Source: an uncultured Candidatus Saccharibacteria bacterium (GTDB lineage: Bacteria > Patescibacteriota > Minisyncoccia > Phycocordibacterales > CAIRYW01). From it: DNA of 64,000 nt. The position numbers were made by a program, and so were the translations under genes. Location of the stretch: the NCBI GenBank assembly GCA_964446625.1, contig CAYUPH010000005.1:1432-65431 (forward strand), in the 5' to 3' direction. Each line of letters opens with the position of its first letter. Position 1 is the first letter of the stretch. Shown in pieces: positions 6,690 to 45,011 of the stretch. Under the pieces are notes generated by a model. That model did not search any database, had not been told where the DNA came from, and saw only the letters and a program-made list of their open reading frames with translations.

Positions 6690-7373
6690 GGGTGTACCGG
6701 GAAGCCGAGGAAAGTCGCTCGGGGTTGGTTTTAGTTTTCGGACCAGTACAAAAACTCTTTCACCGCTCCCTGTCTTTTGAATGGATTCGATTTTACCCCC
6801 GAGTGTTTCTAGTGCATTTTCGGCTTCTTTAAAATCTTCTTTTGAAGAGTCTTTTTGTGCAATGAGGAGCCCTCCTGTCTTCAAAAGAGGAAGTGCATAT
6901 TCGAGAAGAACCGGAAGAGCTGCAACGGCTCTCCCAGTTGCGACGTCGAATTTCTCGCGCATATCTTGGTGTCTGCCTGCTTCTTCTGCTCGTGCAGAAA
7001 CGACCTCAACATTTTGAAGTCCTAAAGTAGATACAATGTGTTCCAAAAAGGTACACTTTTTATTTGTCGCCTCGAGAAGAGTAACCTTTGTTTTCGGAAG
7101 TGCAATTCCTAGGGGAATACCCGGAAAGCCAGCGCCGGAGCCAATATCGATGAGTGTATGAGCGTCTTCTGGAAGCACGGAAATAAGTGAAAGTGAGTCT
7201 TCAAAATGTTTCTCGTCTATATCGCTTTCATTTGTGATTGCTGTTAGGTTAAATTTTTCATTCCAAAGGAGGAGCTCCCTTTTGTATGTGCTAAAAGCGT
7301 CTTGGTTCTCCTTAAGCATGTCTTTTGGTGTTTTCATATTGAACAGAATATACTTAAGTTGTGAAAGTGACAA
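6672..7373 (-). CDS. rsmG: 16S rRNA (guanine527-N7)-methyltransferase RsmG (GidB)
   Basis: IDIGSGAGFPGIPLGIA SAM-binding motif and overall GidB architecture. The true start may be the internal Met (MKTPKD..., about 7337). Confidence 0.8.
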   Translation of the reverse strand: MSLSQLKYILFNMKTPKDMLKENQDAFSTYKRELLLWNEKFNLTAITNESDIDEKHFEDSLSLISVLPEDAHTLIDIGSGAGFPGIPLGIALPKTKVTLLEATNKKCTFLEHIVSTLGLQNVEVVSARAEEAGRHQDMREKFDVATGRAVAALPVLLEYALPLLKTGGLLIAQKDSSKEDFKEAENALETLGGKIESIQKTGSGERVFVLVRKLKPTPSDFPRLPGTPSKKPL

Positions 7374-8087: not shown

Positions 8088-10694
8088 ATGCCAAAGACTA
8101 TAAAAGAGTATATTGAAGGGCTACGGCAGTATAACCCTGGAATAACTGATACTGAGATTACAGAGTATCTTATTTCAATTGGAAAAAATGCTGAAGAAGT
8201 AAAAAACTCATTAGTCCCAAAAGTAGAAGACGCACTTCCTGCTGCTCTGCCAGAAGTAGTACTTCCGCCTAGAGTAGAATCAAGTACACCTCTACCTTTG
8301 GAGGGGAAAGTACCACAGGAAATTTTGATAGACAAACCTCTTGTTGAAGCACCTAAAGAAGAGATAAAAAAACCAAGCGACTTTTCAGTTGATAAACTCC
8401 TTCAAAACGCTTCATTTCACACAGACTTTTCTCCAAAAATAACAGAGACAGTTGTAGCACCCGAAGTGCCCAAGGCACCGCTTGTTCCAAACAGTGTTAC
8501 TGCTCCAGCTTCTCCAAACTCAGAATCAGAAAACACAGGTTTCGTATCAGGAGAAGCTCCAAAAGAATTTACATACCCGGCAAAGGCTCCTGCTTCACCT
8601 GAAGAAAAGTACAGCGAAGCTCGTTTTGTAAGTGAGACGGTTATTGGTCCGGCTAAGCCAATGTCTACTCCATTCCAAGGTTCAAACAATAATCCAGTAA
8701 GTGGAGGTGGAGCTCCTGTCCCTCAGCAAATGGCTAAAGAAGGTAAAACACTAAAAGTGTTAATTGTAATTGTAGTCATCCTTCTTGTTTGCGCTCTTGG
8801 AGGACTTGGGTATATTTATCGCGATAAAATAAGTAGCCTTTTCTCAGGAGGAGAGATTCTTACAAATGAAAATCTTACTTCTAAACTATTTGACGGTTTT
8901 TCTAAGCTAAAAAACGGAAAAGAAACTGGTTTTGTTGAAATGAGTGTAGAAAATAAAAAGGAGGGGATAAAAACATTTGAAGAAGCCTATTCAAATAGTG
9001 GAGCTCTTGTTTCGTTTAAAAAAGATGTCCAAAAGTTTAAAGAAATAAAAGGTGTTCTTGGGAGTTTAAATACTTATTTTTATCGTAACAAAAAATATCC
9101 ATTAAATGCAGAGGATGCGGGAATAGTAATAAAGGATGAATTGGGCCTCGTTTACAAATCCTCTGCTGATCAGAAGGATTTTTTGCTTGAGACGTCTTTT
9201 GAGTCACTAGATATGATCCATACTTTAAAAAATTACCAAAGTACAGAAGACAAAACAAAGATTCAAATAACAAGCAAAGATTTCTACACTTTCTCCAATT
9301 TGAATTTCGATGAGATAGATCCGTTTATGATTTCAGGGACAGCTTCCTTTTTTGCCTCAAGCGCGTCAGGGTCAAGTGGAATGAAAGCTCGCTTAGATTT
9401 TGATGCTACAAGTGGTGAAAGTGACGGAATGCCTCTTTTTGATGTGTTTACAAAGTTTGCTTTTTCGGGAGATGAGTATGATTTCAAGCTCGCCGGATCG
9501 GCGCGTTATGTAAAAGAAGGATTGTTTTTAAAACTTTCTGAGAGCCCCTCTTTTTTTGGTGACTTTTCAAAGATAAAAGATACATGGATATATCTTGATC
9601 CAAAGGAAGAGTTTGATCCCTTTGGAAAAGGTTCAAACTTTTTTGAAAATTTAAGTAGTGAGAAAATCAAAGAGACGATTTCAAAAACAAAAGATGAAAA
9701 GACAGAAAAAATACTTCGCATTTTTGATGAGGAGTCCTTCATACAAATTGAAGGTGAGCCAGTTAAAATAAAAACTGCGGATGGTAAAGATGCATATGAA
9801 TACACACTTAAAATGCATATGGAAAAACTTCCTCAAATATACCCTAAAATTGCACAGGAGCTAAAACTTCCCGAATCATTTCTTGAGGAAAAGCTGTCCC
9901 TTCCACTTTCTGTTCTTTATCTCAAGTATCTTTCTGATAACCAGACCTTTAAAGTTGCTTTACTCAAAAACGGAACGGTTGTAAAAACTGATTATGATTT
10001 TATTCTTTTGCCGTCTCAAACCGGGGGAGTTCAAAACAAACAAGTTCGTTTTTCATACAGGAGCGAACACACATTACCCGAGGGAGGAGTAAATATTCAA
10101 AAACCAGATCTTTATATTACTCAAACAGATGCATACTTAAAAATTGCTGGGCTCACTCTTACAGAGTTTAAGTATCAAAGGCAAAGAGCAGCGATTTCGC
10201 AAATTATTCTTTCTCTCAAAACATATAAATCCTTTACGGGCGCATTTCCAAAACAGCTTTCTGATTTACTTACTCCAGTTAATATGAAAAACGGAAGCTC
10301 AACTATTAAGGGCGAAGCGTTACTTAGATCACTCCCAAAAAATGTGTATGAAGGTAAGGAGATAGTTTATAAAACAGATGAGAAAGGAAGTTTTTCCTTG
10401 AGTTACTACATTGAAATACCAAACAAGGAAGAAGCTTCTCGTAATGTTCCTTTTTATACAGCCCGTCCTAAAAACATCACTGCACTTGCAACGGTTCCGG
10501 GTATCAATACTGCCACAGAAACAGTTTTCTCTTTAGAAGCTGAAGCGGAAGCTTTGGTAGATACAGATAAAGATCTTCTCTCTGACTCACTCGAAGAGTT
10601 TATGGGAACAAACAAGCTCATGAAAGACACAGATGCCGATGGGCTTTCTGACTACTCTGAATTTATAAGTGGTGGGGACCCTCTAAAGAAATAA
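8088..10694 (+). CDS. hypothetical bitopic membrane protein (868 aa): Ser/Pro-rich cytoplasmic N-terminus, single TM, large extracytoplasmic domain with C-terminal acidic DxDxDG-like motifs
   Basis: TM helix LKVLIVIVVILLVCALGGLGYIY at about aa 222-245. C-terminus DTDKDLLSDSLEEFMGTNKLMKDTDADGLSDYSEF resembles Ca-binding repeats. Confidence 0.6.
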   Translation: MPKTIKEYIEGLRQYNPGITDTEITEYLISIGKNAEEVKNSLVPKVEDALPAALPEVVLPPRVESSTPLPLEGKVPQEILIDKPLVEAPKEEIKKPSDFSVDKLLQNASFHTDFSPKITETVVAPEVPKAPLVPNSVTAPASPNSESENTGFVSGEAPKEFTYPAKAPASPEEKYSEARFVSETVIGPAKPMSTPFQGSNNNPVSGGGAPVPQQMAKEGKTLKVLIVIVVILLVCALGGLGYIYRDKISSLFSGGEILTNENLTSKLFDGFSKLKNGKETGFVEMSVENKKEGIKTFEEAYSNSGALVSFKKDVQKFKEIKGVLGSLNTYFYRNKKYPLNAEDAGIVIKDELGLVYKSSADQKDFLLETSFESLDMIHTLKNYQSTEDKTKIQITSKDFYTFSNLNFDEIDPFMISGTASFFASSASGSSGMKARLDFDATSGESDGMPLFDVFTKFAFSGDEYDFKLAGSARYVKEGLFLKLSESPSFFGDFSKIKDTWIYLDPKEEFDPFGKGSNFFENLSSEKIKETISKTKDEKTEKILRIFDEESFIQIEGEPVKIKTADGKDAYEYTLKMHMEKLPQIYPKIAQELKLPESFLEEKLSLPLSVLYLKYLSDNQTFKVALLKNGTVVKTDYDFILLPSQTGGVQNKQVRFSYRSEHTLPEGGVNIQKPDLYITQTDAYLKIAGLTLTEFKYQRQRAAISQIILSLKTYKSFTGAFPKQLSDLLTPVNMKNGSSTIKGEALLRSLPKNVYEGKEIVYKTDEKGSFSLSYYIEIPNKEEASRNVPFYTARPKNITALATVPGINTATETVFSLEAEAEALVDTDKDLLSDSLEEFMGTNKLMKDTDADGLSDYSEFISGGDPLKK

Positions 10695-10742: not shown

Positions 10743-13700
10743 ATGTATAGGAGAAAGAAAGTAGTACTTTTATTTTTTATTTTGTTTTCGCTTTTTACAC
10801 ATACACCACGCGTTTATGGAGTTGATGCATGGTGGGATGCTTCGTGGCAAAAAAGAATAAAAATCACATTTGCAAACGCAGGAAGAGCAGAGAACCTTAC
10901 AAACTTTCCTGTTCTCGTTTCTCTCTCCTCATCTCGTATCGATTTTTCAGATGTTAACTCAAACGGAAGTGATCTTCGTTTTGTGGATGCAGATGGTACT
11001 ACGGTACTAGATTACGAAATTGAAAAATGGAACCCCTCTGGTACCAGTAGTGTCTGGGTTCGTGTTCCTCAAATCGACGCTTCTTCAGATACAGACTATA
11101 TTTATCTCTATTATAAAAATGCAGGAGCAAGCAGTGGTGCAAATCCTTCTGGTGTTTGGGATAGTAGTTATTTGTCGGTACTTCACATGGGGGACAACCC
11201 TACCTCAAGTGGTCCTCAGCAAGATTCTACAGCAAACAATAGTGATGCGACGTCGATTGCATTAAGTGCAACAACAACAGGTGCTATTGGGGATGCGCTC
11301 GATTTAAACGGAACAACTCAATATGTTCAGTATGCAAGCACTACTTTACCCACTCCGCTTAACGCTGGAACGGTGGAGGTAATTTATAATCCTGATACAT
11401 TTGCATCCGATGTAAACGGAAGGTATTTATTTACAAAAGATAAGTCAGGAACTTATATGGGGGAGTGGCGACTCATGCTTGGTAGTGAGTCTGCTGCGCC
11501 GGCTCAAAGCAATAAACTTGCTTTTCGAATTGAGTGTCCGACTTCGCTTGGAGGAAACGGAAATGCGTGGGCAGTTGTTTCTGATATTGCACCACAGCTT
11601 GCAGGTGGCTGGTATTCTGCAACAGCGGTTTGGAACAAAGCAGGGGGGGCGGGAAACATGAAGCTCTATTGGAACGGAACAGCAACAGGAACCCCTTACC
11701 TTAACACTACTGCTGTTGCCACAGCTGATCCAACCTGTGCAATGGAAGTAAGTGGTGAAAAACCAGAAATTGGAAGAAATAACGGTAAAACAACCCAGGA
11801 CGGATATTTTGATGGTCAAATGGATGAATTTCGAATTTCAAATGTTGTAAGAAGTGCTAACTGGATTAATGCAACCTATGCTTCTAGTTTTGATACTTTA
11901 AACACATATGCTTCAGCGGAGACTCCTCCCGACACCACCCCTCCCGTAATCTCAAGCGTTGCCTCTACAACCGCAGTAACAACAGCAACTGTTACGTGGA
12001 CAACTGATGAATCATCAGACTCTGCGGTATGGTACGGCACTCTCTCTGGTAGCTACACAACCTCAACAACAAGCGCATCCCTCGTTACAAGCCACAGTCT
12101 AGGTCTCACAGGACTCTCTGCAGAATCAACATACTACTTTGTTGTTGTATCTAAAGACGCTTCAAACAACACTTCAACTTCATCTGAATACACTCTTCTT
12201 ACTACCGCAGCTCCCGATACAACAGCCCCTGTTATCTCTTCTGTTGCGACAAGTACCACATCTACAACCGCAACAATTACATGGAGTACAAATGAAAATG
12301 CAACATCAACTGTAAATTACGGTACAACTTCAAGTTATGGATCTGCGTCAACATCTGCATCCTTTACCACTTCACACTCAATTACACTCACCGGACTCTC
12401 TCCACTTACAACTTACCACTTCCAAGTATCTTCTGGAGATTCTTCTTACAACTACGCAACAACAAGTGACTATACAGTGGTGACGGGGGCGTCGACACCT
12501 TCTGCTCCAACGAGTCTTGTTGCAACTGGTTATGATGGTAAGGTAAATGTAAAGTGGACTAATCCTGGAGGAACAATTACCGACTATGCTGTGGAGTACA
12601 AACTTTCTTCAGACTCTGTTTGGTCAATGTTTAGTGACGGCGTTTCAACCGCTACAAGTTCAATTGTCACAGGTCTTACAAACAACTCAGCATATGACTT
12701 TCGTGTAACTACTATAAACAGTGGAAGTTACAGTGCATCTTCTTCTCCTGTTTCCGCAACTCCTCAAGTGGTAATTTCTTTTATAAGCCCAACAATTACA
12801 GGAGGAACATCGACTACCTCTACATCTATAACAGGATATGCTTCTTCTACAATAGCGACGCCAAGTTATATGACTTTCCGTCTTGAAACGAATGGAGGAA
12901 CCCTTGTGTCAGAGGCTACAACCACAACAAGATATGGTGACTACAATATTTCTAATTTAGCTACGACAACAAATAAACAGGATCTATCTATTACCGGAGA
13001 TCTATCCGGAGTCGCGTATGTTCCAACTACAGATACACTTTTTACAATTCACAATAATCAAAATGTTATCCACGAAGTAACAAGGGCGGGAGTAAATGTA
13101 AGGACAATAACATGTTCAAGTTGTAACGATGCGGAAGATATTACACTTGTTTCAAGTGTTGCCTCAACAACTGTTGGCGGGTATGATCACACATTTCTCA
13201 TTTCAACAGAAGATGTAGACACAACTAACCACCAGGTTTTTCGCGTCGTTATTCATTCAACAGGAGCAGCGACTGTAAACCGAACTACTTACTATTCAAC
13301 AGGTATAAGTAGCTCACCTTACACAAACAACGGCTTGGAGGGAGTCGCATACAATTCAAATACAGGTCACTTTTATGCAGCGCTCGAAGGTCAGCAAAAC
13401 GATACAGGAGAACCGAAATTATATGAAGTTACACCAGGAAACATTGCGACACATAGTGCGACAAATCAAAGGATTTGTACTAATTTAAATTTTAGAGATT
13501 ACACAACAACTGATGCTACTCGTTTTCCAGCAAGTCCGGGTTATGCTGATATTTCCGGTTTGTATTATGAGGCAACAAACAATCATCTGTATGTTCTCTC
13601 TCATATGGGAGACAAAATGCTTGAGCTCGATATTTCCGACACTTCAAACTGTGTAGTTTTGAGACAAAAAGGAGTGGTAACACGAGCAGATAGTGGATCA

Positions 13701-16232
13701 AACTTTCTGTTTGAAATGCCCGAAGGAATTTCATGGGACTCAACAGGAGAGTATTTATATGTAGGAACCGAATCCGACTATTGGTCTGTGTGGCGCACAA
13801 CTTCCTATGGAATGAGAAATACATTTTCAGGTCTCTCAGACGGTTCATATAATCTGTATGCAAGTGTCACAGATACAGATGGTATCACTTCAACAACAAC
13901 TGCTCGTTCATTTACAGTGGGTAGTGATGTAACTGCACCTTCAATTTCTAGCGTTGCTTCTTCTACGGATGCTACATCTGCAACAATTACATGGAGCACA
14001 AACGAAGCAGCATCTTCATCGGTACGTTTCGGTCTTTCTACTGCTTACTCTTCTGGTGTTTCTACATCAAGCGGTTCAACAAGTCATTCGGTCAACCTTT
14101 CAGGACTTAATTCAGGTACGCTATATCACTTTGCTGTTTATGCTGCCGACGCTTCAGGGAATAGCGCAACAACAACTGATTATACTTTTACAACAACTTC
14201 AGCACTCGACACCACCCCTCCCGTAATCTCAAGCGTTGCCTCTACAACCACAGTAACAACAGCAACTGTTACGTGGACAACTGATGAATCATCAGACTCT
14301 ACGGTATGGTACGGCACTCTCTCTGGTAGCTACACAACCTCAACAACAAGCGCATCCCTCGTTACAAGCCACAGTCTAGGTCTCACAGGACTCTCTGCAG
14401 AATCAACATACTACTTTGTTGTTGTATCTAAAGACGCTTCAAACAACACTTCAACTTCATCTGAATACACTCTTCTTACTACCGCAGCTCCCGATACAAC
14501 AGCCCCTGTTATCTCTTCTGTTGCGACAAGTACCACATCTACAACCGCAACAATTACATGGAGTACAAATGAAAATGCAACATCAACTGTAAATTACGGT
14601 ACAACTTCAAGTTATGGATCTGCGTCAACATCTGCATCCTTTACCACTTCACACTCAATTACACTCACCGGACTCTCTCCACTTACAACTTACCACTTCC
14701 AAGTATCTTCTGGAGATTCTTCTTACAACTACGCAACAACAAGTGACTATACAGTGGTGACGGGGGCGGATACGACAGGTCCTACAATTTCTAATATTTC
14801 AGTGAGTGAAACTTCGAGTGGAGGAACTATTTCATGGACTACTGATGAACTTGCTTCTTCACTTGTAGCGTATGGACCAGGAACTACTTTTGGAGCAACA
14901 ACTACCGAAACCGATACTTCTCCACGAGTACTGTCTCATTCTGTAGTCTTTTCTGATCTTTTAGCTTGTTCAAGGTACTTCTTTAGAATTGCATCTGAAG
15001 ATGCTGCGGGAAATAGATCATATTCATCAGAAAGCGCTTTTTCAACAACTGGTTGTACAGGGTCAGCTAGTATTGAAGAAGTAGAAGTTGAAAATCTAGA
15101 CGTTTCAACAGGAGGTGCACTTTCAGTTGGGGGAAGCGGTCAACAGATAACTTTAGACATACCAGCAGATGCGACTGCTACATCTTCATCTCTTACATTC
15201 CAACTAAAAATTATTTCTGATAGTAGCGTTATTGATTCTATTAGTACTCCTGCAGACAAATCGGTTGCAGAGGGACATATATATGATTTGAAGGCATTCA
15301 TAAATGCCACAACTACACTTTCAACTTTTGATGAGCCTCTCACTATCACACTCTCGTATGATGATAGTGATGTGCGAGGAGTGTCTGAGTCGTCACTTTT
15401 AATTTATCGATATGATAGCGGTTCTTGGACACCTTTGTCTAACTGTTCCGTAAATACTTCGGCAAACACTATAACTTGTGAGACAGATCATTTCTCAGTT
15501 TTTGGTCTCTTTGGAACTACCCAAAGAAGTAGTAGCGGTGGCGGAAAAAAAGGAGGGAGTTCAAATAAACCAAAAAACACAGATAATACTGTCGCTACTT
15601 CTACTCCAGCGCTAAATAATCCGGTAGTAAATATTTCTGTGTTTACTAAACTACTTGTACTCGGCACTGTTGATACAGAAGTTCTTACGCTTCAGAGGTT
15701 TTTAAACCGTGATCCATTAACTCGAGTTGCAACAACTGGTGTCGGGTCTCCCGGATTTGAGACTTCCAGATTTGGAGAACTTACAAAAGAGGCGGTTATA
15801 AAATTTCAGATTAAAAATGGTATTATTGCTTCTAGGGAAAGTGTTTCTGCCGGAGTTGTCGGACCTCAAACTCGCCTCAAACTAAATTCACTTATTACTG
15901 ACACTTCTACAAGCCCAGTTGTAACAACTCCGAGCGGTCCCGTTGCTCTGGTGCCTTCAAACCAGGTTCTCACAGAGAACTTAGTGCTTGGAACTATAAG
16001 TCCACAAGTTAAAATACTACAACAATTTTTAAACCAGGATTTATCGACTCAGATCGCTCAAAGTGGACCAGGTTCAAATGGGCAAGAGACAGAAAAATTC
16101 GGTTCTCTTACTAAGGAGGCAGTTATTAAATTCCAAATAAAATACGGAATTATAAAAGATAGAACAGACCAATTTGCAGGAACAGTAGGCCCAAATACAC
16201 GTGAGAAGATAAATCTTCTTTTAAAAAAATAA
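10743..16232 (+). CDS. giant secreted cell-surface protein (1829 aa): signal peptide, DUF2341/LamG-like lectin region, multiple Fn3-like modules, C-terminal two peptidoglycan-binding (PG_binding_1) domains
   Basis: Signal peptide MYRRKKVVLLFFILFSLFTHTPRVYG. WWDASWQKRIKITF (DUF2341-like start). Repeated TxAPxISSVAxxTTxTxATITWxTNE Fn3-like modules. C-terminal LVLGTVDTEVLTLQRFLNRD...KFQIKNGI and LVLGTISPQVKILQQFLNQD...KFQIKYGI (PG_binding_1-like, x2). Confidence 0.8.
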   Translation: MYRRKKVVLLFFILFSLFTHTPRVYGVDAWWDASWQKRIKITFANAGRAENLTNFPVLVSLSSSRIDFSDVNSNGSDLRFVDADGTTVLDYEIEKWNPSGTSSVWVRVPQIDASSDTDYIYLYYKNAGASSGANPSGVWDSSYLSVLHMGDNPTSSGPQQDSTANNSDATSIALSATTTGAIGDALDLNGTTQYVQYASTTLPTPLNAGTVEVIYNPDTFASDVNGRYLFTKDKSGTYMGEWRLMLGSESAAPAQSNKLAFRIECPTSLGGNGNAWAVVSDIAPQLAGGWYSATAVWNKAGGAGNMKLYWNGTATGTPYLNTTAVATADPTCAMEVSGEKPEIGRNNGKTTQDGYFDGQMDEFRISNVVRSANWINATYASSFDTLNTYASAETPPDTTPPVISSVASTTAVTTATVTWTTDESSDSAVWYGTLSGSYTTSTTSASLVTSHSLGLTGLSAESTYYFVVVSKDASNNTSTSSEYTLLTTAAPDTTAPVISSVATSTTSTTATITWSTNENATSTVNYGTTSSYGSASTSASFTTSHSITLTGLSPLTTYHFQVSSGDSSYNYATTSDYTVVTGASTPSAPTSLVATGYDGKVNVKWTNPGGTITDYAVEYKLSSDSVWSMFSDGVSTATSSIVTGLTNNSAYDFRVTTINSGSYSASSSPVSATPQVVISFISPTITGGTSTTSTSITGYASSTIATPSYMTFRLETNGGTLVSEATTTTRYGDYNISNLATTTNKQDLSITGDLSGVAYVPTTDTLFTIHNNQNVIHEVTRAGVNVRTITCSSCNDAEDITLVSSVASTTVGGYDHTFLISTEDVDTTNHQVFRVVIHSTGAATVNRTTYYSTGISSSPYTNNGLEGVAYNSNTGHFYAALEGQQNDTGEPKLYEVTPGNIATHSATNQRICTNLNFRDYTTTDATRFPASPGYADISGLYYEATNNHLYVLSHMGDKMLELDISDTSNCVVLRQKGVVTRADSGSNFLFEMPEGISWDSTGEYLYVGTESDYWSVWRTTSYGMRNTFSGLSDGSYNLYASVTDTDGITSTTTARSFTVGSDVTAPSISSVASSTDATSATITWSTNEAASSSVRFGLSTAYSSGVSTSSGSTSHSVNLSGLNSGTLYHFAVYAADASGNSATTTDYTFTTTSALDTTPPVISSVASTTTVTTATVTWTTDESSDSTVWYGTLSGSYTTSTTSASLVTSHSLGLTGLSAESTYYFVVVSKDASNNTSTSSEYTLLTTAAPDTTAPVISSVATSTTSTTATITWSTNENATSTVNYGTTSSYGSASTSASFTTSHSITLTGLSPLTTYHFQVSSGDSSYNYATTSDYTVVTGADTTGPTISNISVSETSSGGTISWTTDELASSLVAYGPGTTFGATTTETDTSPRVLSHSVVFSDLLACSRYFFRIASEDAAGNRSYSSESAFSTTGCTGSASIEEVEVENLDVSTGGALSVGGSGQQITLDIPADATATSSSLTFQLKIISDSSVIDSISTPADKSVAEGHIYDLKAFINATTTLSTFDEPLTITLSYDDSDVRGVSESSLLIYRYDSGSWTPLSNCSVNTSANTITCETDHFSVFGLFGTTQRSSSGGGKKGGSSNKPKNTDNTVATSTPALNNPVVNISVFTKLLVLGTVDTEVLTLQRFLNRDPLTRVATTGVGSPGFETSRFGELTKEAVIKFQIKNGIIASRESVSAGVVGPQTRLKLNSLITDTSTSPVVTTPSGPVALVPSNQVLTENLVLGTISPQVKILQQFLNQDLSTQIAQSGPGSNGQETEKFGSLTKEAVIKFQIKYGIIKDRTDQFAGTVGPNTREKINLLLKK
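11931..12491 (+). repeat. copy 1 of a 561-bp intragenic direct repeat (two Fn3-like modules)
   Basis: Nearly identical to 14208-14768. Only about 2 mismatches seen (ccgcagta/ccacagta, tctgcggt/tctacggt). Confidence 0.85.
14208..14768 (+). repeat. copy 2 of the 561-bp intragenic direct repeat
   Basis: See copy 1. Spacing between copies is 2277 nt, in frame in both. Confidence 0.85.
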
Positions 16233-16611: not shown

Positions 16612-17964
16612 ATGGACCACACAACACTTACAATCTTTGGTGCAACTGGAGATTTGTTTAAAAAGAAACTCGCTCCAGCGCTCTTTGATTTGTATGTGAG
16701 AGGGTCCCTTCCAAACCGATTTACAATACTTGGACTTTCTCGAAAACCACTATCCCACAATGAGTTTAGAAACCTAGCCACCCTTGGTATAGAAAAACAT
16801 GAAGCGTTTACGGAAAAAGGGGAAGGTTTCCTAAGAAGACTTTTCTATTACAGTCTTGATGCTACTGACAGCAATTCTTTTGATCAACTTCGCGAGATTA
16901 TCGATAGAAACGATGCGGAGTTTGCAAGTTGCTCAAATAAACTTTTTTATCTTGCAACTGTTCCTGAGCTCTACGCCCACATATTCACAGGTCTTTCAAA
17001 GGTTGGTTTTTCTGTTCCTTGTGTTCCTCCACTTAGAAAGACAGAAAACTGGTCGCGAATTCTTGTAGAAAAGCCGTTTGGGTATGATGCAAAAAATGCA
17101 GAATTTCTTGAAGAACTTTTGTCAGAGTCTTTTGATGAAAGCCAAATTTTCCGAATTGATCACTATCTTGCAAAAGAGACAGTGCAAAACATACTCGCCT
17201 TTCGATTTAAGAATGCACTTTTTGAGCCTCTTTGGAGTAGAAAATATATTGAGCGAGTGGAGCTAAAAGTATATGAGACAGCAGATATAACAGGAAGAGA
17301 ATCTTTTTATGATTCGATTGGGGCGCTTAAAGACTTTGGTCAAAACCATCTTTTGCAAATGTTAGCCCTCCTTGGTATGGAAGAACCAGAAGACTTTTCT
17401 GGAGAAAAAGTAAGAAGTGCTCGTGCTCGGATTTTAAGTGAGACGAAATCGAGTGAAAATGTCACACTTGGTCAGTACGAGGGGTACGCAAGAGGATCCC
17501 TTATAGGGTCTACAACAGAAACTTATTTTAAAGCGGAGCTTCGAGTGGAGAATGAAAGATGGAAGGGAGTTCCTTTTGTTTTAGAACATGGAAAAGCGCT
17601 CAGTGATAACTTTTCAGGAATTATTGTTTATTTTAAACAAAACCCAGAGACAAAAACACCTAACAATATAAGATTTAAAATTCAGCCAGAGCCAGAAATT
17701 TGCGTTTCTTTAAATGTGTTAGAAACCAATATTGGTTCGAACACAGAAGAGCAGAATATGCTTTGTTTTCCACTGCGAGCAAAGGAGAGTAGCGCTGTGT
17801 ATCCGTATGAAAAGCTATTGTCCGATGCTCTCCTTGGAGATCAGACATTATTTGTTTCAAGCAAGGAAGTAAAGGAAGAGTGGAGGATTGCAGACGAGAT
17901 AAAACAATCTGCTAAAGATACAGAACTTCTTATCTACAAAAAAGGAGAAATCTTTGGGTTATAA
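16612..17964 (+). CDS. zwf: glucose-6-phosphate 1-dehydrogenase
   Basis: NADP-binding FGATGDLFKKKLAPALF and the G6PD active-site signature RIDHYLAKE. 450 aa. Confidence 0.85.
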   Translation: MDHTTLTIFGATGDLFKKKLAPALFDLYVRGSLPNRFTILGLSRKPLSHNEFRNLATLGIEKHEAFTEKGEGFLRRLFYYSLDATDSNSFDQLREIIDRNDAEFASCSNKLFYLATVPELYAHIFTGLSKVGFSVPCVPPLRKTENWSRILVEKPFGYDAKNAEFLEELLSESFDESQIFRIDHYLAKETVQNILAFRFKNALFEPLWSRKYIERVELKVYETADITGRESFYDSIGALKDFGQNHLLQMLALLGMEEPEDFSGEKVRSARARILSETKSSENVTLGQYEGYARGSLIGSTTETYFKAELRVENERWKGVPFVLEHGKALSDNFSGIIVYFKQNPETKTPNNIRFKIQPEPEICVSLNVLETNIGSNTEEQNMLCFPLRAKESSAVYPYEKLLSDALLGDQTLFVSSKEVKEEWRIADEIKQSAKDTELLIYKKGEIFGL

Positions 17965-17971
17965 TAATCTT

Positions 17972-18871
17972 ATGCAAATTTTATATATTGGTCTTGGAAA
18001 AATGGGAAAAGGAATGGCTCTCCTTATGGGAGAAAAAGGTCACAATGTCTTTTGTTATAACCGAAGTGAACTTGGAAGAGCTGAGGCCGTAGAAGCAAGA
18101 CTCAAAGTGTATAGTACAATTCCTTCTCTTTTTGCTGCAGTTCCAGGAAAGAAAATTGTTTTTATTATGGTAAGTCACTCTGGTGTCGATGAAGTTCTTG
18201 CCGAGGTAGTGCCTTTACTTGTGCCAGGCGATATTGTAATCGATGGGGGAAATTGTTTTTATAAAGACAGTCAAAGAAGAGGTGAAATGCTCTTAGAGAA
18301 AAAAATCCACTTTTTGGATGTCGGAGTTTCAGGTGGTCCGGGAGGAGCAAGGAATGGTGCATGTCTTATGATTGGAGGACAGAAAGAAGTTTTTGAAGAA
18401 TTAGAGCCACTCTTTAAAGATATTTCGGATGGAGGAGTCGCGTACTCTTACCTAGGTTCAGTTGGGGCGGGACACTTCGCAAAAATGGTTCACAATGGTA
18501 TTGAGTACGGTATGATGCAGTCAATTGCAGAAGGGTTTAACATACTAAAAAACAGCGGGTTTGAGTACTCTCTTTCTGAGCTCGCAGACCTTTATCAAAA
18601 GAAAAGTGTGATTGAATCACGCCTTGTTGAGTGGCTTCGCGATGGTTTCAAAAAATACGGAGAGGACTTAGAAGGAATTTCTGGAGAAGTTTCGGCAAGT
18701 GGAGAAGGAGAGTGGACAGTTCAGACAGCTAAAGAAAAAAACCTACTCGCAGAGTCTATTGAGCTAGCTCTCAATTTTAGAACAAAAAGCAAAGGTAATC
18801 CTTCATTTGTTGGAAAACTTCTCTCAACAATGCGAACAATGTTTGGGGGTCACGATGTCAAAGAAAAATAA
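17972..18871 (+). CDS. gnd: 6-phosphogluconate dehydrogenase (decarboxylating), short about-300-aa form
   Basis: NAD(P)-binding IGLGKMGKGMA, catalytic-region motifs GVSGGPGGARNG and HFAKMVHNGIEYGMMQ. ATG at 17972 preferred over the track's TTG at 17954. Confidence 0.75.
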   Translation: MQILYIGLGKMGKGMALLMGEKGHNVFCYNRSELGRAEAVEARLKVYSTIPSLFAAVPGKKIVFIMVSHSGVDEVLAEVVPLLVPGDIVIDGGNCFYKDSQRRGEMLLEKKIHFLDVGVSGGPGGARNGACLMIGGQKEVFEELEPLFKDISDGGVAYSYLGSVGAGHFAKMVHNGIEYGMMQSIAEGFNILKNSGFEYSLSELADLYQKKSVIESRLVEWLRDGFKKYGEDLEGISGEVSASGEGEWTVQTAKEKNLLAESIELALNFRTKSKGNPSFVGKLLSTMRTMFGGHDVKEK

Positions 18872-19817
18872 TATGAAATATATTTATACTTTCAAAGAGC
18901 TTACAAAAAAAGATGCGCACATTGCTGGTGGAAAGGGTGCGTCTCTTGGAGAAATGACAAATGCAAAAATTCCTGTCCCAGGAGGTTTTGTGATTACGAG
19001 CGAGTCTTTTGAGTTTTTCTTGGCACAAAATGATCTGACACAAGAAATCGAATCTATTTTAAAAAAGGTAAACCACAAAGAAATGGAGTCGGTAGAGAGA
19101 GCAAGTGAGAGTATTAAGGAGCTGATTTTAAAAGCGTCTCTTCCAAAGGAAATGCAAAAGTCTATAAAAATAAACTTTAGTAAACTAAAAGCAAAGTTTG
19201 TTGCAGTGCGAAGTAGTGCCACTGCCGAAGATGGTGCTGAGCATGCGTGGGCAGGACAGCTCGATAGTTTTCTCAATACCACAAGTAAAAAGTTAGAAGA
19301 AAATATAAAGAGGTGTTTCGCGTCTCTTTTTACACCGAGGGCAATTTTTTATCGATTTGAAAAAGGTCTTGATAAATCGCACATATCGGTTGCCGTGGTT
19401 GTGCAAAAAATGATTCAAAGCGAAAAATCAGGAATTGCTTTTAGTGTACATCCAGTAACAGAAGACAGAAATCAAATGATTATCGAAGGTTCGTGGGGGC
19501 TCGGTGAAGCAATTGTATCGGGGCAGATTACTCCAGATTCGTATGTGGTTGAGAAAGATACAAACACAATTATTGATACAAATACCGCCGAAAAGTCCAA
19601 AGGACTTTTCGGCGACGGTAAAGGAAAAAATGTTTGGAAAACAATTCCAGGCAAAAAGGCAAACACAGAGTGTCTCTCGGGCAAAGAAGTGATTGCTCTA
19701 GGGGAAATCATAAAACAAATAGAAAAGCATTACGGATTTCCTTGTGATATCGAGTGGGCTTTTGAAAAGAAAAATTTTTTTATTACACAAAGTCGACCGA
19801 TTACGACGTTGAAGTAA
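18855..19817 (+). CDS. stand-alone PPDK_N-type ATP-grasp nucleotide-binding domain protein (PEP synthase / rifampin phosphotransferase N-terminal domain homolog)
   Basis: FKELTKKDAHIAGGKGASLGEMTNAKIPVPGGFVITSESF matches the PEP synthase/PPDK N-terminal ATP-binding domain. Ends after the ATP-grasp domain, with no swivel or TIM-barrel domain. Alternative start at ATG 18873 directly after the gnd stop. Confidence 0.7.
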   Translation: MSKKNNMKYIYTFKELTKKDAHIAGGKGASLGEMTNAKIPVPGGFVITSESFEFFLAQNDLTQEIESILKKVNHKEMESVERASESIKELILKASLPKEMQKSIKINFSKLKAKFVAVRSSATAEDGAEHAWAGQLDSFLNTTSKKLEENIKRCFASLFTPRAIFYRFEKGLDKSHISVAVVVQKMIQSEKSGIAFSVHPVTEDRNQMIIEGSWGLGEAIVSGQITPDSYVVEKDTNTIIDTNTAEKSKGLFGDGKGKNVWKTIPGKKANTECLSGKEVIALGEIIKQIEKHYGFPCDIEWAFEKKNFFITQSRPITTLK

Positions 19818-19872
19818 TTATTAGAGATGAAAAACTTATTTACGAACATTATTAATTCATAGAATACAAAAA

Positions 19873-20643
19873 ATGGAAGAATTTAATTTTGTAAGACATG
19901 GCTCAAAAATGAAAGCAGATGAAGTAAGGGTTCCAATTAAAGAATCTGGACTCAGTTCTTCACAACAAGAAAAGTGGAAGGAGGCGGTAGAGAGGCTTAA
20001 ACTTGAGGATCCAGAAATCAATTATGACTCTTTGGTGAAAATTGAAGCCCTCGCGCAAGATATATGTAGTCAATTACCAGAGAAGGCTTTACTCATATTT
20101 AACTCTACCAATACTCCTCGAACTAAATTAACCGCTGACTTTTTGTCCACTTCAGTTTTTGAAGAATCCAAAAAGCTAGGTAAAGATATTAGGGTGGCTT
20201 ATATATGGGAACCAAGTTTGAGGGCTAAAGAAGATGGTGCTCTTATGAGAACTTCAGAGAGTATTGGTATACCACTTATGTTAAGACTTATGGAGGAGGT
20301 GGAAGAAAATGATGATAAAAGTTTGCATATGTATTTAACTTCAGGTAAAGGTGCTTTTGCTCACCCGAAAGAGGATGAATTGGTAATGAAAGCTGTGAAC
20401 AGAGATTTGGCAAGCGAACCCTCATTTTTCAAAAACAGAGCAGCAGTGTTGAAAGGTCAAATGGATCGTATTAGAGAATCGTTTCCTGATAAAGATTTAC
20501 CACTTTATTTCTACGGGATAGGTCATCATGGAAGTCTAATAGCTCTAGATGTCGCATTTAATGGAAGAGAGAAGTATAGTTCTGTTGATGAGATACCACA
20601 ACCTCTTAGTGTATGGGGGGTAAACTTAAAAAATGAAAACTAA
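19873..20643 (+). CDS. histidine phosphatase superfamily (phosphoglycerate-mutase-like branch) protein
   Basis: N-terminal catalytic RHG motif (FNFVRHGSKM) and C-terminal GIGHHGSLIALD (second conserved His region). 256 aa. Confidence 0.5.
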   Translation: MEEFNFVRHGSKMKADEVRVPIKESGLSSSQQEKWKEAVERLKLEDPEINYDSLVKIEALAQDICSQLPEKALLIFNSTNTPRTKLTADFLSTSVFEESKKLGKDIRVAYIWEPSLRAKEDGALMRTSESIGIPLMLRLMEEVEENDDKSLHMYLTSGKGAFAHPKEDELVMKAVNRDLASEPSFFKNRAAVLKGQMDRIRESFPDKDLPLYFYGIGHHGSLIALDVAFNGREKYSSVDEIPQPLSVWGVNLKNEN

Positions 20644-21658
20644 GCTTATAAAATCATTCACTAGAGAATTTCCATTGATACATGTTCAAATGTGGGGCAA
20701 AAGATACGCTACAGAATTTTTTGGAGAAAAACTTCCGCATACTCCTATTTATGTTTATCTCTTAAAAGATGGGCTTGTTACTGCATACAGAAATCCTGCA
20801 GGGCAAGCTAGCATTGTAAATCCAATTATTAGGGCAAAACTCGATAGTGATCCGGATTATATTAAAAAGTTTGTAGATCAGAAATCTGAAGTCTTGGAGC
20901 GCTTGATTAAAATAAATGAAGCGAGTGAAGTGTCTCTTGAAGAATTTAAAAGTTACCTAAAAGATCTATTTGATTATTGGCAGATACATTATATTTCTCA
21001 ATTTTTACCATTAGATGAAGGAAGATTTACCAAGGAAGAACGAGATCATGCTCTTGCTCTTCGTAAAACTATAGATCAAGTTATCCATAACTCTTGGAAT
21101 TCAATAACCCCGATATTAAAAAGACTTTACCCAGACTTAGGTGAACTTGTTGCTTATATTGCATGGGATGAGCTTTTTGATTCAAAGATACCAAATATAT
21201 TAGAGTTGATGAAAAGAGAGGTTGAAGGTGTTCTTATTTATAATGGTGATATTGTGACTAAAGAAGAATTAAATGAATGGGAGGAGAAAGATAATTTTGA
21301 AGTCGAATGGGATAATGAAATTGTTGAAGAAAAAGAAATTGCTGGTCAGATTGCTTGCTCTGGTAAAGTGACCGGCAATGTAAGAATCATTTTAAAAAAA
21401 GACGACATGGTTAATTTTAAACATGGAGAAATTCTCATTTCGTATATGACAATGCCTGCTTTTATGCCTGCTATACTTAAAGCTACTGCCTTTATTACTG
21501 ACGAAGGAGGAATCACCTGTCACGCTGCAATAGTTGCCCGTGAGCTCAAAAAACCCTGTATAATTGGCACCAAAATCGCCACAAAGGTGCTGAAGGACGG
21601 GGATTTGGTAGAGGTAGATGCTGAGAAGGGAATTGTGAGAATAATTGAAAGGAAATGA
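20633..21658 (+). CDS. protein with unknown N-terminal domain (about 230 aa) and C-terminal PEP-utilising-enzyme mobile (phospho-His swivel) domain
   Basis: C-terminal [48 protein letters not shown] is the PEP-utilizers swivel-His signature (catalytic His in CHAAIVARE). Confidence 0.65.
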
Positions 21659-22761
21659 AAAAAAGCTTAGGCAAAGAAATATTCAATCCATACCAAGTTT
21701 CAATGACGGAATGGTATGCATCGCTTGGAAAGCAGAAAAAAGCTGAAGTGATTCGCTATGAAGACAATACAAAAGATGAGCGCCTAGAAGTGCTCTTTCA
21801 AACAATTGGACTAGAGTACGAAAGGCCAACAGATTTTGAAGCAACAGCGCTTCTCTCAAAGGATAAAGAGTTCGTTGCTTTTCTAAAGTCGAAAAAAAAC
21901 GAACTCTGTGCACTGAGACTTATTCCAAAAGAAAAGAACTTGCCAAAACTTCGTAGTCGGGGATTATCTGTAAATGATGTCTTTACAAAGTGGTTTCCAA
22001 AACAAAAGATAGATGCAAAAAAGTACATTGCTTCTTTTAGACCGCACGCGGGAACTTACCCACTTTCGATTATCTTGGTTGTAAATAAAAAAGGGATTTT
22101 TGGCCAGACAGTTGTGGGGCAACACGCACAGCTTTCTCAAGGTGAGACAAAAAGACAGACAACTGAGTTTGTCTACAAATTCGGTAAGTGGGAGTGGAGA
22201 AACAAAACAACAAAATCAGAGCGGGTAATAAAAGACATTGTAAAGAGTATTCAAGTTTTAGATTTGAGAAAACGACAAACTCTCTCAAAAAAAATAAACG
22301 CAAAATTTACTCACAATTTTCTGGAGGGGTACTACGAAGCTATTTTGTGGAAAGATGGGGTGATTCGATTTTCAGATTTTAATAGACTTTTGTATAAAGA
22401 TATTTCTCTGCCAAATTTAGATGAAAGAAAAGGATTAAGTGGAGTGTCAGTCTATAAAGGTAAGATAAAGGGAAGAGTGGGTATTATTTCCTCTCAAAAT
22501 ATACTTAAAAAAGCTTTTCAAAAAGGTTCTGTTTTGGTAACACAAAACACTGATGTTCGCTTCCTGCCTCTTATGAAAATCGCGAGTGCAATTTTGACAG
22601 ATAAAGGAGGACTCCTCTCCCACGCCGCAATCGTTGCCCGTGAGCTCAAAAAGCCATGTATAATTGGCACCAAAATCGCCACAAAGGTGCTGAAGGATGG
22701 GGATTTGGTAGAGGTGGATGCGGAGAAGGGGGTGGTGCGGGTTTTAAAAAGGAAGGAATAA
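21655..22761 (+). CDS. paralogous protein with a different N-terminal domain (about 260 aa) and the same C-terminal phospho-His swivel domain
   Basis: C-terminal [48 protein letters not shown]. The last ~110 nt are about 94% identical to the 3' end of the upstream gene. Confidence 0.65.
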
Positions 22762-26068: not shown

Positions 26069-26710
26069 GTGGAAAACAAGAAAATTATTGATATTTCTCT
26101 TCCTGTAAAAACAGGGATGACAATTTACCCGGGGAATGCGCCGGTTTTAATTTCTTCTTGGCATTCGATACAAAAGGGAGATTCAAGCAATCTTTCACTC
26201 CTTTCTCTTGGGAGCCACACAGGTACGCACATAGACGCTCCGTTCCATGGGCATATGGAAGGGAAAACTCTGGGACAGATTCCACTTTCTGTCTTTGTAG
26301 GAAAATGTAAAGTTTTTGATTTTGAATCGTCTAAGGAGGCGGTGACACTTGAGGATATTAAGTCAAGACAAATTGAGAAAGGGGACAGAATACTTCTCCG
26401 GACTTCAAACTCAGTAAGAGGAATGGATACATTTTATGATGACTATGTTTATCTCTCAGGAGAGGCAGCGGAGTATTTGGCAGAGAAAGAAGTTGTACTT
26501 GTTGGAATTGACAGTTTGTCTATAAAGCAAAGAGGAAGCAAAGACAATAGGCCACACAGTGCTCTTTTGTCGAAGGATATTCCGATTATTGAGGGTTTAA
26601 ATCTAAAAGACGTTTCCTCTGGAGAATATGAACTGTACTGTCTTCCACTTTCAGTTGATATCGATGGAGCTCCTGCGAGAGTGGTGTTAATTGATAATAA
26701 TCTTAGATAG
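26069..26710 (+). CDS. cyclase family protein (kynurenine formamidase-like, PF04199)
   Basis: HTGTHIDAPFH matches HxGTHxDxPxH. GTG start 6 nt after a TATAAT box (leaderless). Confidence 0.65.
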   Translation: MENKKIIDISLPVKTGMTIYPGNAPVLISSWHSIQKGDSSNLSLLSLGSHTGTHIDAPFHGHMEGKTLGQIPLSVFVGKCKVFDFESSKEAVTLEDIKSRQIEKGDRILLRTSNSVRGMDTFYDDYVYLSGEAAEYLAEKEVVLVGIDSLSIKQRGSKDNRPHSALLSKDIPIIEGLNLKDVSSGEYELYCLPLSVDIDGAPARVVLIDNNLR

Positions 26711-26722
26711 TAGTCTACTTGA

Positions 26723-28480
26723 ATGCAGAAAAACAAAAAACAATTAGGTGTTTTTGGCCATTACTATAAATCTTTAGGTAAGAGGTTTGTTGCTGTTTTT
26801 GCACTTGAATTTGTTGTCTTAGGTGGAAGTATATTTATTTCGAATATCCTTCTTCCTAACTACTATAAAAACATTATTGATGCTATTACGACAGGAGAAA
26901 CCTATACGTATATTATAAAAATTATTACATCAGTATTATTTTTGGGGTTAATAGAAGTTTTACTAGATCGTACGTTTGAGATTATTGATTCAAGAGTTAT
27001 TTCACGAGCATTTGTTAGAAATGGTGATTATGCTCTAAGAGAATTAACTAGTCATTCCTATCAGTTTTTTGCCAATAATTTTGCTGGTTCTTTAGTAACA
27101 AAGTTAAAAAGGTTTGTTACTTCTATTGATCAGCTTGTAGGAATCATCATTCGCGACTTTTTGTATGCAATTATAAGTGTTGTAGGAGTTATCGTTGTTC
27201 TTTTTTTAAACAATAAATTACTTGGGATTACCGCCCTTCTTTGTTTTAGTGTGTTTTTTGTTGTAATGGTCTTGTTTACAAAAAAACGTATCCCGTTAGA
27301 AAGAGAAAAAAGTAAAATGGAATCAAAAGTTACAGGAGTCGTATCCGACATAATAACCAACATCTTGAACCTTAAACTATTCTCTTCGCAGAAAAAAGAA
27401 ATGGAAAATTTCAATATCCTTCAAGAGGAAGATCACCGTATTCGAATTAAGACTTGGAGTTGGGCGAATAGTGCATACACTGTGCAAGCGATAATAAGCA
27501 TGTTTTCAAAAGTTTTACTTATTTATCTTAGTGTGTACTTGTGGAGTATAGGAGAAATTACAAGTGGAACAATTGTATTAGTAATTTCTTACAGTACCAT
27601 TCTATTTAATAGACTAGGATCGCTTGGTAGTGCGATAAGGCGTTTTACGGATGCATATACAACCGCGAAAGAATTTACTGATGTTTTAAACCAAGAAATA
27701 GAAATAAAGGATTCTTTGTCGCCACTCAAGAGTTCTGTAAAGAAAGGGGAGATAATATTTAATAACGTCTTATTTTCTTACAAGGATGGGGCACCAATAT
27801 TTAAAAACTTTTATCTAAAAATAAACCCAGGGGAAAAAGTTGGGATTGTTGGAACAAGCGGTGCGGGTAAAACTACTATTACGAAATTGTTGCTTAGATT
27901 TGCGGATGTGACAGAGGGAGAAATTTTAGTCGATGGAACTGATATTCGTAATGTAACACAAGATGATTTAAGATCTGTGATATCATACGTTCCTCAAGAT
28001 CCCATTTTATTTCATAGAACACTCAGAGAAAATATTGCATACGGGAAACCTGATGCAAGTCCAGATGAAATTGAGAGTGCTTCTAAGGAAGCTCATGCAC
28101 ACGAGTTTATTTCTGGTCTTAGTATGGGATATGACACACTTGTAGGAGAACGTGGGATTAAATTGTCGGGTGGTGAAAGGCAAAGAGTGGCTATTGCGAG
28201 AGCGATACTTAAAAATGCTCCCATTCTTTTACTTGATGAAGCAACTAGTGCTCTAGATTCCGTTTCAGAAATGCATATAAAAGAAGCTTTAAATAGGCTT
28301 ATGGAGGGAAGAACAACTATTGTAATTGCTCATCGTTTATCAACAATAGAAAAAATGGATAGAATTATTGTTCTCGAAAAAGGGGTAATAGTGGAAGAAG
28401 GAAGTCATAAACATCTTCTATCAAAAAAAGGGATATATTTTAATTTTTGGAGTCACCAAAACGGTGGGTTTATTGAATAA
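26723..28480 (+). CDS. ABC transporter, fused permease/ATP-binding protein (type I exporter)
   Basis: Six TM helices N-terminally. Walker A GTSGAGKTT, signature LSGGERQRVAIARA, Walker B LLLDEATSALD, H-loop IAHRLSTI. Confidence 0.85.
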   Translation: MQKNKKQLGVFGHYYKSLGKRFVAVFALEFVVLGGSIFISNILLPNYYKNIIDAITTGETYTYIIKIITSVLFLGLIEVLLDRTFEIIDSRVISRAFVRNGDYALRELTSHSYQFFANNFAGSLVTKLKRFVTSIDQLVGIIIRDFLYAIISVVGVIVVLFLNNKLLGITALLCFSVFFVVMVLFTKKRIPLEREKSKMESKVTGVVSDIITNILNLKLFSSQKKEMENFNILQEEDHRIRIKTWSWANSAYTVQAIISMFSKVLLIYLSVYLWSIGEITSGTIVLVISYSTILFNRLGSLGSAIRRFTDAYTTAKEFTDVLNQEIEIKDSLSPLKSSVKKGEIIFNNVLFSYKDGAPIFKNFYLKINPGEKVGIVGTSGAGKTTITKLLLRFADVTEGEILVDGTDIRNVTQDDLRSVISYVPQDPILFHRTLRENIAYGKPDASPDEIESASKEAHAHEFISGLSMGYDTLVGERGIKLSGGERQRVAIARAILKNAPILLLDEATSALDSVSEMHIKEALNRLMEGRTTIVIAHRLSTIEKMDRIIVLEKGVIVEEGSHKHLLSKKGIYFNFWSHQNGGFIE

Positions 28481-44987: not shown

Positions 44988-45011
44988 GCTTTTTATATGT
45001 GGTAAAATGTG

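Follow-up and report, generated by a model that had tools for sequence, protein, structure and literature searches.

Swivelling phospho-His dikinases are known either as single enzymes, among them phosphoenolpyruvate (PEP) synthase, PPDK, rifampin phosphotransferase (RPH) and glucan water dikinase, or as one-to-one pairs such as PpsAB and HpeHI; PpsC of the PpsAB(C) phenylphosphate synthase is a CBS protein. Here we analyze four adjacent genes, g1–g4, that carry ATP-grasp and swivel domains of this kind on separate polypeptides. They lie in a 64,000-nt stretch of DNA from an uncultured Candidatus Saccharibacteria bacterium (assembly GCA_964446625.1, contig CAYUPH010000005.1, positions 1,432–65,431). 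This whole stretch is called the window, its own numbering is used throughout, and codes beginning with L or P denote related loci and proteins. Among characterized dikinases, PpsAB, CreHI and HpeHI have a separate ATP-grasp subunit that presents ATP to the swivel His of a partner (PMC12167813). The swivel His keeps the beta-phosphate and passes it to an acceptor bound by the partner, the complex between the two being transient, and trans action of the two components has been proven biochemically for HpeHI and PpsAB (PMC12167813). The Hpe pathway combines its kinase with a dedicated phosphatase, HpeD, which is a HAD enzyme (PMC9618137). VadK (Rv1127c) of M. tuberculosis corresponds to PPDK minus the TIM barrel and autophosphorylates on His (PMC13400623).

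The first-pass annotation of the window had described the region 18855–22761 as a split, RPH-like module made of four co-directional, overlapping genes. The open reading frame (ORF) listing bears out this arrangement. All four genes are on the + strand, with an overlap of 11 nt between g2 and g3 and of 4 nt (ATGA) between g3 and g4. We use G1 for the family of g1, and F1 and F4 for the families of the N-terminal domains of g3 and g4. The features of the locus are as follows.

18855..19817, + strand: g1, stand-alone ATP-grasp nucleotide-binding subunit (PPDK_N only, 320 aa)
19873..20643, + strand: g2, probable divergent histidine-phosphatase-superfamily protein (256 aa; putative catalytic R8-H9 at 19894-19899)
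20633..21658, + strand: g3, F1 helical N-domain (aa 1-~232) followed by a C-terminal phospho-His swivel (341 aa)
21521-21523, + strand: catalytic His297 of g3, motif GGITCHAAI
21655..22761, + strand: g4, compact, predicted ATP-grasp-like F4 N-domain (aa ~8-255) followed by a C-terminal swivel (368 aa)
22621-22623, + strand: catalytic His323 of g4, motif GGLLSHAAI
21521..21634 (g3) and 22621-22734 (g4), + strand: near-identical 114-nt tract, the catalytic His codon and the 37 codons after it

The locus is probably a split, multi-module ATP-dependent dikinase of the PEP-synthase / RPH mechanistic class. Like PpsAB(C), CreHI and HpeHI (HpeHI/AcvAB), it has a separate PPDK_N-type subunit, an acceptor/swivel subunit and no TIM barrel. 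In those systems a single swivel subunit of ~600–700 aa carries an RPH-type substrate domain, whereas the swivel proteins of the locus are 340–370 aa long and carry a short helical or ATP-grasp-like domain with no detectable similarity to the RPH/HpeH substrate domain. The known two-component dikinases are one-to-one systems for phenolics in the aromatic catabolism of free-living Proteobacteria and Actinobacteria; the family represented in the window has several modules per ATP-grasp and occurs in bacteria of the candidate phyla radiation (CPR) and in DPANN archaea. The partner protein also differs, g2 having a probable His-phosphatase fold and HpeD being a HAD enzyme. RPH and PigC/RedH share with the locus an ATP-grasp, an acceptor domain and a C-terminal swivel His, and relatives in which G1, F1 and swivel, or PPDK_N, F4 and swivel, are fused have the same domain order as RPH. 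RPH itself is a single chain with one swivel, and its acceptor domains differ from those of the window proteins. By sequence, g1 and the swivel domains are closest to PEP synthase. PEP synthase and PPDK have a TIM barrel, which the locus lacks, and in canonical PpsA the swivel comes right behind the ATP-grasp. Since PpsAB, CreHI and HpeHI have already been characterized (PMC12167813), the division into separate polypeptides is not new in itself. Nor is the system categorically new, as it most likely uses the chemistry of an enzyme class that is already known. The features that seem new are the one-to-many modular architecture, the acceptor domains, one of which appears to be a second ATP-grasp, and a distribution limited to CPR and DPANN.

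The ATP-grasp subunit is the best defined of the four proteins. g1 matches the Pfam family PPDK_N (PF01326, E 3.3e-98, profile positions 3–312 of 328) and contains no other domain, in agreement with the first reading of this gene. In NCBIfam, the N-terminal part of g1 matches models of PEP synthase and RPH with scores that fall far short of the cut-offs for full-length proteins, and g1 scores best with the N-terminus of PEP synthase models. With the RPH model NF041857 it reaches 265 bits against a cut-off of 999, and the matches of g3 and g4 to the same model are confined to its final ~110 positions. A PEP/pyruvate-binding TIM barrel was absent from the 64-kb window in tblastn and hidden Markov model (HMM) searches with canonical PpsA C-termini (best E 0.41), and Pfam PEP-utilizers_C matched none of g1–g4, so the earlier conclusion that the locus is neither a PEP synthase nor a PPDK holds. 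The split is also no frameshift artefact, since stand-alone G1 genes encoding 314–335 aa are present in L001, L003, L010–L012, L024 and L065. We propose that g1 is the ATP-binding "charging" component of the system.

Both g3 and g4 end, as predicted for them, in a PEP-utilizer swivel domain with a catalytic His. PF00391 is matched at residues 262–333 of g3 (E 9.9e-24) and 288–359 of g4 (E 1.4e-23), and His297 of 341 residues and His323 of 368 residues each lie within ~50 residues of the C-terminus. This His is invariant in 120 of 120 swivel domains surveyed. Across all modules and genomes, the swivel half that begins with this His and runs to the C-terminus shows 68% identity, and the N-terminal half 41%; conservation of the C-terminal half fits the docking of all modules on the same G1. 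In the window, the 114-nt tract shared by g3 and g4 covers this highly conserved half. The two copies agree at 104 of 114 nucleotides (91%) and at 29 of 38 third positions, and their protein sequences are 100% identical. g3 additionally keeps a T-x-H motif with a regulatory-type Thr.

To place the locus among its relatives, we scanned one genome per GTDB species with g1 and obtained 54 loci, whose ORFs were searched with purpose-built HMMs representing g1, g2, the N-domains of g3 and g4, and the swivel. Relatives from CPR and DPANN that are 40–43% identical to g1 are canonical PpsA proteins of ~780 aa, in which a swivel directly follows the ATP-grasp. Every relative at least 51% identical to g1 is from Patescibacteria and has a non-canonical architecture. 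These non-canonical loci (~40) contain one PPDK_N followed by one to seven modules, each made of a variable domain of 220–470 aa and a swivel. The modules may be separate co-directional genes, as in L003 (six), L012 (five), L018 (seven), L019 (six) and L065 (seven), or be fused in one frame, as in L029 (2098 aa with four swivels), L030 (1875 aa), L041 (1799 aa) and L033 (1805 aa). In 11 loci, for example L022, L026, L030 and L043, G1 and an F1-swivel module are joined directly in one chain. BLAST comparison groups the variable domains into at least 12 recurrent families, the commonest being F1 with 29 modules in 24 loci. The families of 340–425 aa form one superfamily (hhalign 98–99.7%); F1, F3 and F9 are related to one another (95%) and show a weaker relationship with parts of the large families, and F4 stands apart from the other families in profile comparison. 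The window locus is thus a minimal member, with two modules, of a Patescibacteria family that has some relatives in DPANN archaea. A literature search that covered part of the journals turned up the two-component dikinases, RPH, VadK and a survey of rph-like gene counts in CPR, but no account of multi-swivel arrays, of F1 or F4 domains or of His-phosphatase partners, and the pairing of one ATP-grasp with up to seven carrier modules is apparently an undescribed family. It is this family, with its recurrent His-phosphatase-like partners and with modules that are shuffled between close relatives and sometimes strung into one chain of ~2,600 residues, that makes the locus notable. Its hosts have reduced genomes and depend on other cells.

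The nearest relatives of the window genes are all in Patescibacteria (CPR) metagenome-assembled genomes. Independent assemblies of the same DNA exist in other ENA samples, and one of them, L064, is identical. Another, L063 (ENA ERZ17987007), is identical over the aligned 7 kb around g1–g4 except for two indels, a 1-nt deletion at 21892 and an additional A at 24658, which lies far downstream of g4. The 1-nt deletion breaks g4 into 86 + 273 aa and is either a strain variant with an inactivated g4 or an assembly error.

The N-terminal domains of g3 (~230 aa) and g4 (~260 aa) have no match in Pfam, NCBIfam or the sequences of the PDB. They are unrelated to each other by BLASTP and by profile comparison, as the first reading had stated. 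The F1 domain of g3 is helical in its predicted model, which has a predicted local distance difference test (pLDDT) score of 72, with the N-terminal 56 aa below 50. At this moderate model quality, g3 gave no significant match to RPH beyond the swivel. Profiles built from the variable N-domains found no match to the rifampin-binding domain in the PDB or NCBIfam. A profile of full-length swivel proteins of ~490 aa did align with RPH (79–489 / 453–878); since the N-domain profile by itself found nothing, we claim no homology to the rifampin-binding domain. The RPH-like logic on separate polypeptides that was first proposed thus stands as a logic, and a link between the g3 N-domain and the rifampin-binding domain does not emerge from these comparisons.

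The N-terminal domain of g4 was first taken for an unknown substrate domain, and structure prediction changes that view. An AlphaFold 2 model of g4 built from 77 sequences has a pLDDT of 93.7 and a predicted template modelling score of 0.88. In Foldseek searches the whole of g4 is collinear with the nucleotide-binding and swivel domains of PPDK over 347 columns (E 4.7e-10), with a further match to Ddl at ~1e-5, and the best ATP-grasp structural match of the N-domain is HpeI. The model thus gives the g4 N-domain a compact ATP-grasp-like fold. Parallels between F4 and PPDK_N motifs noted by eye were dropped for want of statistical support in hhalign. Residues R88, K98, R100, R102, E228 and D241 are conserved in the F4 family and would suit a phosphate/Mg site. 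The family is small, with 179 clusters at 50% identity among 1.84 billion representatives. A tblastn search of phage records with F4 gave no match, and a scan of IMG/VR matched generic swivel domains only; a phage origin is therefore not supported.

Besides proteins of ~365 aa like g4, F4 was seen in three further kinds of architecture. The first is a single PPDK_N-F4-swivel chain, found in P0127 (699 aa), P0136, P0137 and P0110. F4 also lies within multi-swivel giants (P0114, P0134 and P0171, the last being a 2648-aa protein with PPDK_N and six swivels), and the third kind comprises P0112, with tandem F4 domains as F4-F4-swivel and no PPDK_N, and P0124, in which F4 and swivel are fused to NTPase_I-T (DUF84) and an S-adenosylmethionine methyltransferase. 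P0127 is collinear with g1 and then g4: residues 6–319 are 59% identical to g1 over its full length, and the part that follows is 40% identical to the whole of g4. The pair g1 + g4 is therefore the split form of a three-domain protein, and PPDK_N-F4-swivel has the domain order of RPH with F4 in place of the RPH substrate domain. F4-swivel genes with no G1 nearby occur in L005 and in the DPANN locus L008. The neighbors of F4-swivel genes include genes for NUDIX (L005 and L007), HAD (L007) and dCMP deaminase (L008) proteins. These neighbors and the NTPase_I-T fusion, although anecdotal, fit a nucleotide-like ligand for an ATP-grasp-like domain. VadK resembles g4 in consisting of ATP-grasp and swivel without a TIM barrel. 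It keeps a recognizable PPDK_N, whereas the g4 N-domain is recognizable only by structure, and g4-type modules, unlike VadK, usually have a separate canonical PPDK_N next to them or in the same chain.

Direct searches of Pfam, NCBIfam and the PDB with g2 returned nothing significant. An alignment of 14 sequences, the window g2 and 13 of its 15 homologues, has R8, H9, K12, P82, R83 and T87 invariant, while T79, E113 and H219 are conserved almost throughout. These residues follow the pattern RH(G) ... [ST]xxxRxxxT ... E ... H, the catalytic core of branch 1 histidine phosphatases with its RHG His, two Arg, second His and acidic proton donor, and the spacing T79-R83-T87 equals S58-R62-T66 of GpmA, GpmB, CobC and SixA (reference sequences confirmed as His_Phos_1 with Pfam). 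His_Phos_1 (PF00300) is matched by 2 of the 14 family members (best E 3.6e-4), and a direct hhalign comparison of the family with the four known phosphatases gave a non-significant 2.6%. A connection is provided by four accessory families in related clusters, A4, A5, A7 and A17, which consist of 250–320-aa proteins with an N-terminal RHG or RHA. A7 and A4 pass the Pfam gathering threshold for His_Phos_1 (40.9 and 28.2 bits), and hhalign relates the accessory families to the known phosphatases at 90–98% (97–98% for the link on which g2 depends), g2 to the accessory families at 93.3%, and g2 to A7 plus the known enzymes at 90.6% over 147 columns. We accept g2 as a putative histidine-phosphatase-superfamily protein by this remote, transitive homology. 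The identity first assigned to it survives on these terms, and the window protein itself gave no match to PF00300. As in the branch 1 enzymes dPGM, CobC, SixA and PhoE, g2 has RH(G), [ST]xxxRxxxT, an acidic residue ~30 aa later and a C-terminal His. Unlike them, it has large insertions and the family-specific invariant residues K12, W35, W112, Y154, E167, E169 and W248.

His-phosphatase-like genes (g2, A4, A5, A7 or A17) lie inside 16 of the ~40 non-canonical loci, where they are co-directional, tightly packed and usually immediately upstream of a swivel gene. The order of g2 and an overlapping F1-swivel gene is kept in L001, L003 and L065, down to 49% identity. The accessory families are not tied to one module family. 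An idea that they go with swivels that keep the regulatory-type Thr was discarded, as there is no such association. Two further genes were seen near g2 homologues. In L003, a 204-aa transglutaminase-core-like protein (Pfam E 1.3e-5) is encoded at 6623-7237, within the cluster of six swivels and a short way upstream of the g2 homologue. In L066, a Cyclase-family gene (Pfam PF04199, at 8842-9606) adjoins a distant homologue of g2, and no swivel gene was detected in the vicinity; the window has a Cyclase-family gene near g2 at 26069-26710, so labelled from its translation and not from a domain scan.

These data suggest how the locus would work. g1 would bind ATP, and the swivel His of g3 (His297) or g4 (His323) would dock on it in trans. 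By analogy with PpsAB, HpeHI and RPH, the His would take the beta-phosphate, with release of AMP and of the gamma-phosphate as Pi, and the swivel would then swing back to its own N-domain and hand the phosphoryl group to the acceptor bound there. The acceptor would be a ligand of the ~230-aa helical F1 domain in g3 and a ligand of the compact ATP-grasp-like F4 domain, most plausibly nucleotide-like, in g4. g2, which is translationally coupled to g3, would most likely hydrolyze or handle a phosphorylated product or intermediate of the g3 branch. Its role could be that of a product phosphatase, like HpeD in the Hpe pathway, of a carrier-directed phospho-His phosphatase or of a phospho-acceptor enzyme. 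The data establish the domain identities, the conserved catalytic His, the lack of a TIM barrel, the fusions and the one-to-many architecture of the family, whereas the trans-charging, the stoichiometry of ATP to AMP + Pi, the nature of the acceptors and the role of g2 are points that we infer. The fusions of G1 to F1-swivel and F4-swivel, the one-to-many ratio of genes and the conservation of the swivel half that would dock on G1 agree in indicating one charger (g1) and two carriers (g3 and g4).

Several points weigh against this scheme. The F1 model gives no confident fold assignment and F1 has no link to the rifampin-binding domain, and a small-molecule acceptor is therefore an assumption. 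The similarity of F4 to PPDK_N is structural only, with hhalign against the G1 family at 0.4% and no match to PF01326. At the same time, since F4 appears ATP-grasp-like and stands without G1 in L005 and L008, g4 might charge itself. The membership of g2 in its superfamily is derived from motifs and transitive profile matches and not from a direct match. In the surveyed loci no swivel module was found joined to a His-phosphatase domain, so the functional link of g2 comes from gene order only.

Self-charging is the core of one alternative, in which g4 is a self-contained mini-dikinase, independent of g1, that autophosphorylates His323 and acts as a VadK-like regulatory or protein-directed histidine kinase. 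The collinearity of the whole of g4 with PPDK, the F4-swivel genes without neighboring G1 in L005 and L008, the F4-F4-swivel protein P0112 without PPDK_N and the architectural precedent of VadK (PMC13400623) all speak for it. Yet a G1-type domain is adjacent or fused in six of eight F4 loci, F4-swivel is an internal module of multi-swivel chains that start with PPDK_N (L030, P0114, P0134 and P0171), and the single PPDK_N-F4-swivel chains would carry two redundant ATP sites. We consider independence of g1 unlikely, and the split dikinase charged by g1 remains our preferred reading. Far less credible still is an ordinary PEP synthase or PPDK broken by frameshift or assembly error, or a set of its decaying fragments. 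g1 does score best against the PEP synthase N-terminus, G1 is fused to downstream modules in many relatives, and the L063 variant shows a 1-nt deletion that splits g4; but there is no TIM barrel in 64 kb, canonical CPR/DPANN PpsA is only 40–43% identical to g1 and places the swivel immediately behind the ATP-grasp, all four ORFs have the full length of their families and keep the conserved catalytic residues, and the split arrangement recurs in independent genomes and assemblies. We regard breakage as next to impossible.

Two other alternatives concern what the partners and modules are for. Instead of acting on a small-molecule product, g2 and the accessory proteins could be phospho-His (or pyrophospho-His) phosphatases that reset or regulate the swivels, in the way that SixA acts on NPr and ArcB. 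Protein phospho-His phosphatases such as SixA and PGAM5 belong to the His-phosphatase superfamily, which we count in favor of this role, along with the tight packing of accessory and swivel genes in 16 loci and the conserved g2/g3 overlap. Such an activity would run a futile ATP cycle if unregulated, however, and the accessory families pair neither with a fixed module family nor with regulatory-Thr swivels and are present in only ~40% of loci, which leaves the idea with a minor share of our confidence. It is also conceivable, and in our judgement improbable, that the arrays are batteries of RPH-like phosphotransferases that inactivate xenobiotics or antibiotics in an episymbiotic CPR cell, one toxic compound per module. 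The mechanistic class is that of RPH, close relatives such as the window and L010 have no module family in common, genes for ABC exporters adjoin many clusters, and a survey that counted rph-like genes scored CPR genomes as carrying them (PMC8651080). Against such a battery, the variable domains have no detectable similarity to the rifampin-binding domain, the recurrence of F1, F2, F3 and F4 in many genomes suggests common substrates instead of a fast arms race, a PADLOC scan gave no defense-system matches, and the neighbors and fusions of F4 point to nucleotide metabolism.

If the split dikinase reading is taken further, the family could be a modular ATP-driven phosphorelay of CPR and DPANN with a logic like that of the phosphotransferase system (PTS). 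A single charger would load exchangeable swivel carriers, each wired to its own acceptor domain, F4 would serve nucleotide-to-nucleotide phosphoryl or pyrophosphoryl transfer (e.g. ATP + NMP -> AMP + NDP or NTP, where NMP, NDP and NTP are nucleoside mono-, di- and triphosphates), and g2-type partners would be dedicated components of a branch; together these parts could take the place of conventional kinases in the reduced genomes of the hosts. We offer this as a speculation with rather low odds. The swivel is homologous to that of EI in the PTS (EI, HPr and many EII), and the service of many substrate components by one energy component would be a functional analogy. The donor differs, being PEP in the PTS and ATP in the window system, which lacks homologues of HPr and EII as well as membrane components. 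Should the modules phosphorylate different metabolites, the family would represent unrecognized CPR/DPANN metabolism, would hold a dozen or more new acceptor-binding domains and would show a plug-in kinase architecture as it occurs in nature. The pair of g1 and g4 and its fused counterpart form a small, directly testable system.

The surroundings of the cluster bear on how its modules are exchanged. zwf and an NAD-type short 6-phosphogluconate dehydrogenase gene (gnd) occupy 16612-18871, directly upstream of G1. The g1 ORF opens at 18807, and its ATG at 18855, which is preceded by a GGGGG run, overlaps the 3' end of the dehydrogenase gene. zwf-gnd-G1 is also found in L010, where G1 is 84% identical to that of the window and no module family is shared. 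Since zwf-gnd-G1 is kept and the modules are wholly different, the modules turn over like cassettes, and the difference between the window and L010 looks like cassette-like replacement. A functional tie of the cluster to zwf-gnd was considered and rejected, because the adjacency is common to L010 only, with entirely different modules. In other relatives the neighbors of G1 are rpoD, dnaG or other genes, and the pentose-phosphate genes are probably mere neighbors of the cluster.

The window has a G+C content of ~38%. Scans for promoters and terminators gave signals no better than those in shuffled sequence, and a riboswitch search of the window found none. A fused ABC exporter gene (ABC_membrane + ABC_tran) lies at 26723-28480, and exporters of this kind adjoin the dikinase cluster or lie within a few kb of it in L003, L005, L011, L012, L014, L021–L023 and L061 as well; this recurrence may reflect shared synteny or a functional link. 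Upstream, at 10743-16232 on the + strand, the window encodes an 1829-aa surface-type protein with fn3-like repeats and a near-exact internal duplication of ~190 aa, in which the block 'PPDTTPPVISSVASTT...DYTVVTGA' is present in two copies. Further downstream are a bacterial RNase P class A RNA at 45011-45340 on the + strand (133.6 bits), tRNA-Arg(CCT) at 52109-52181 and tRNA-Phe(GAA) at 53888-53963.

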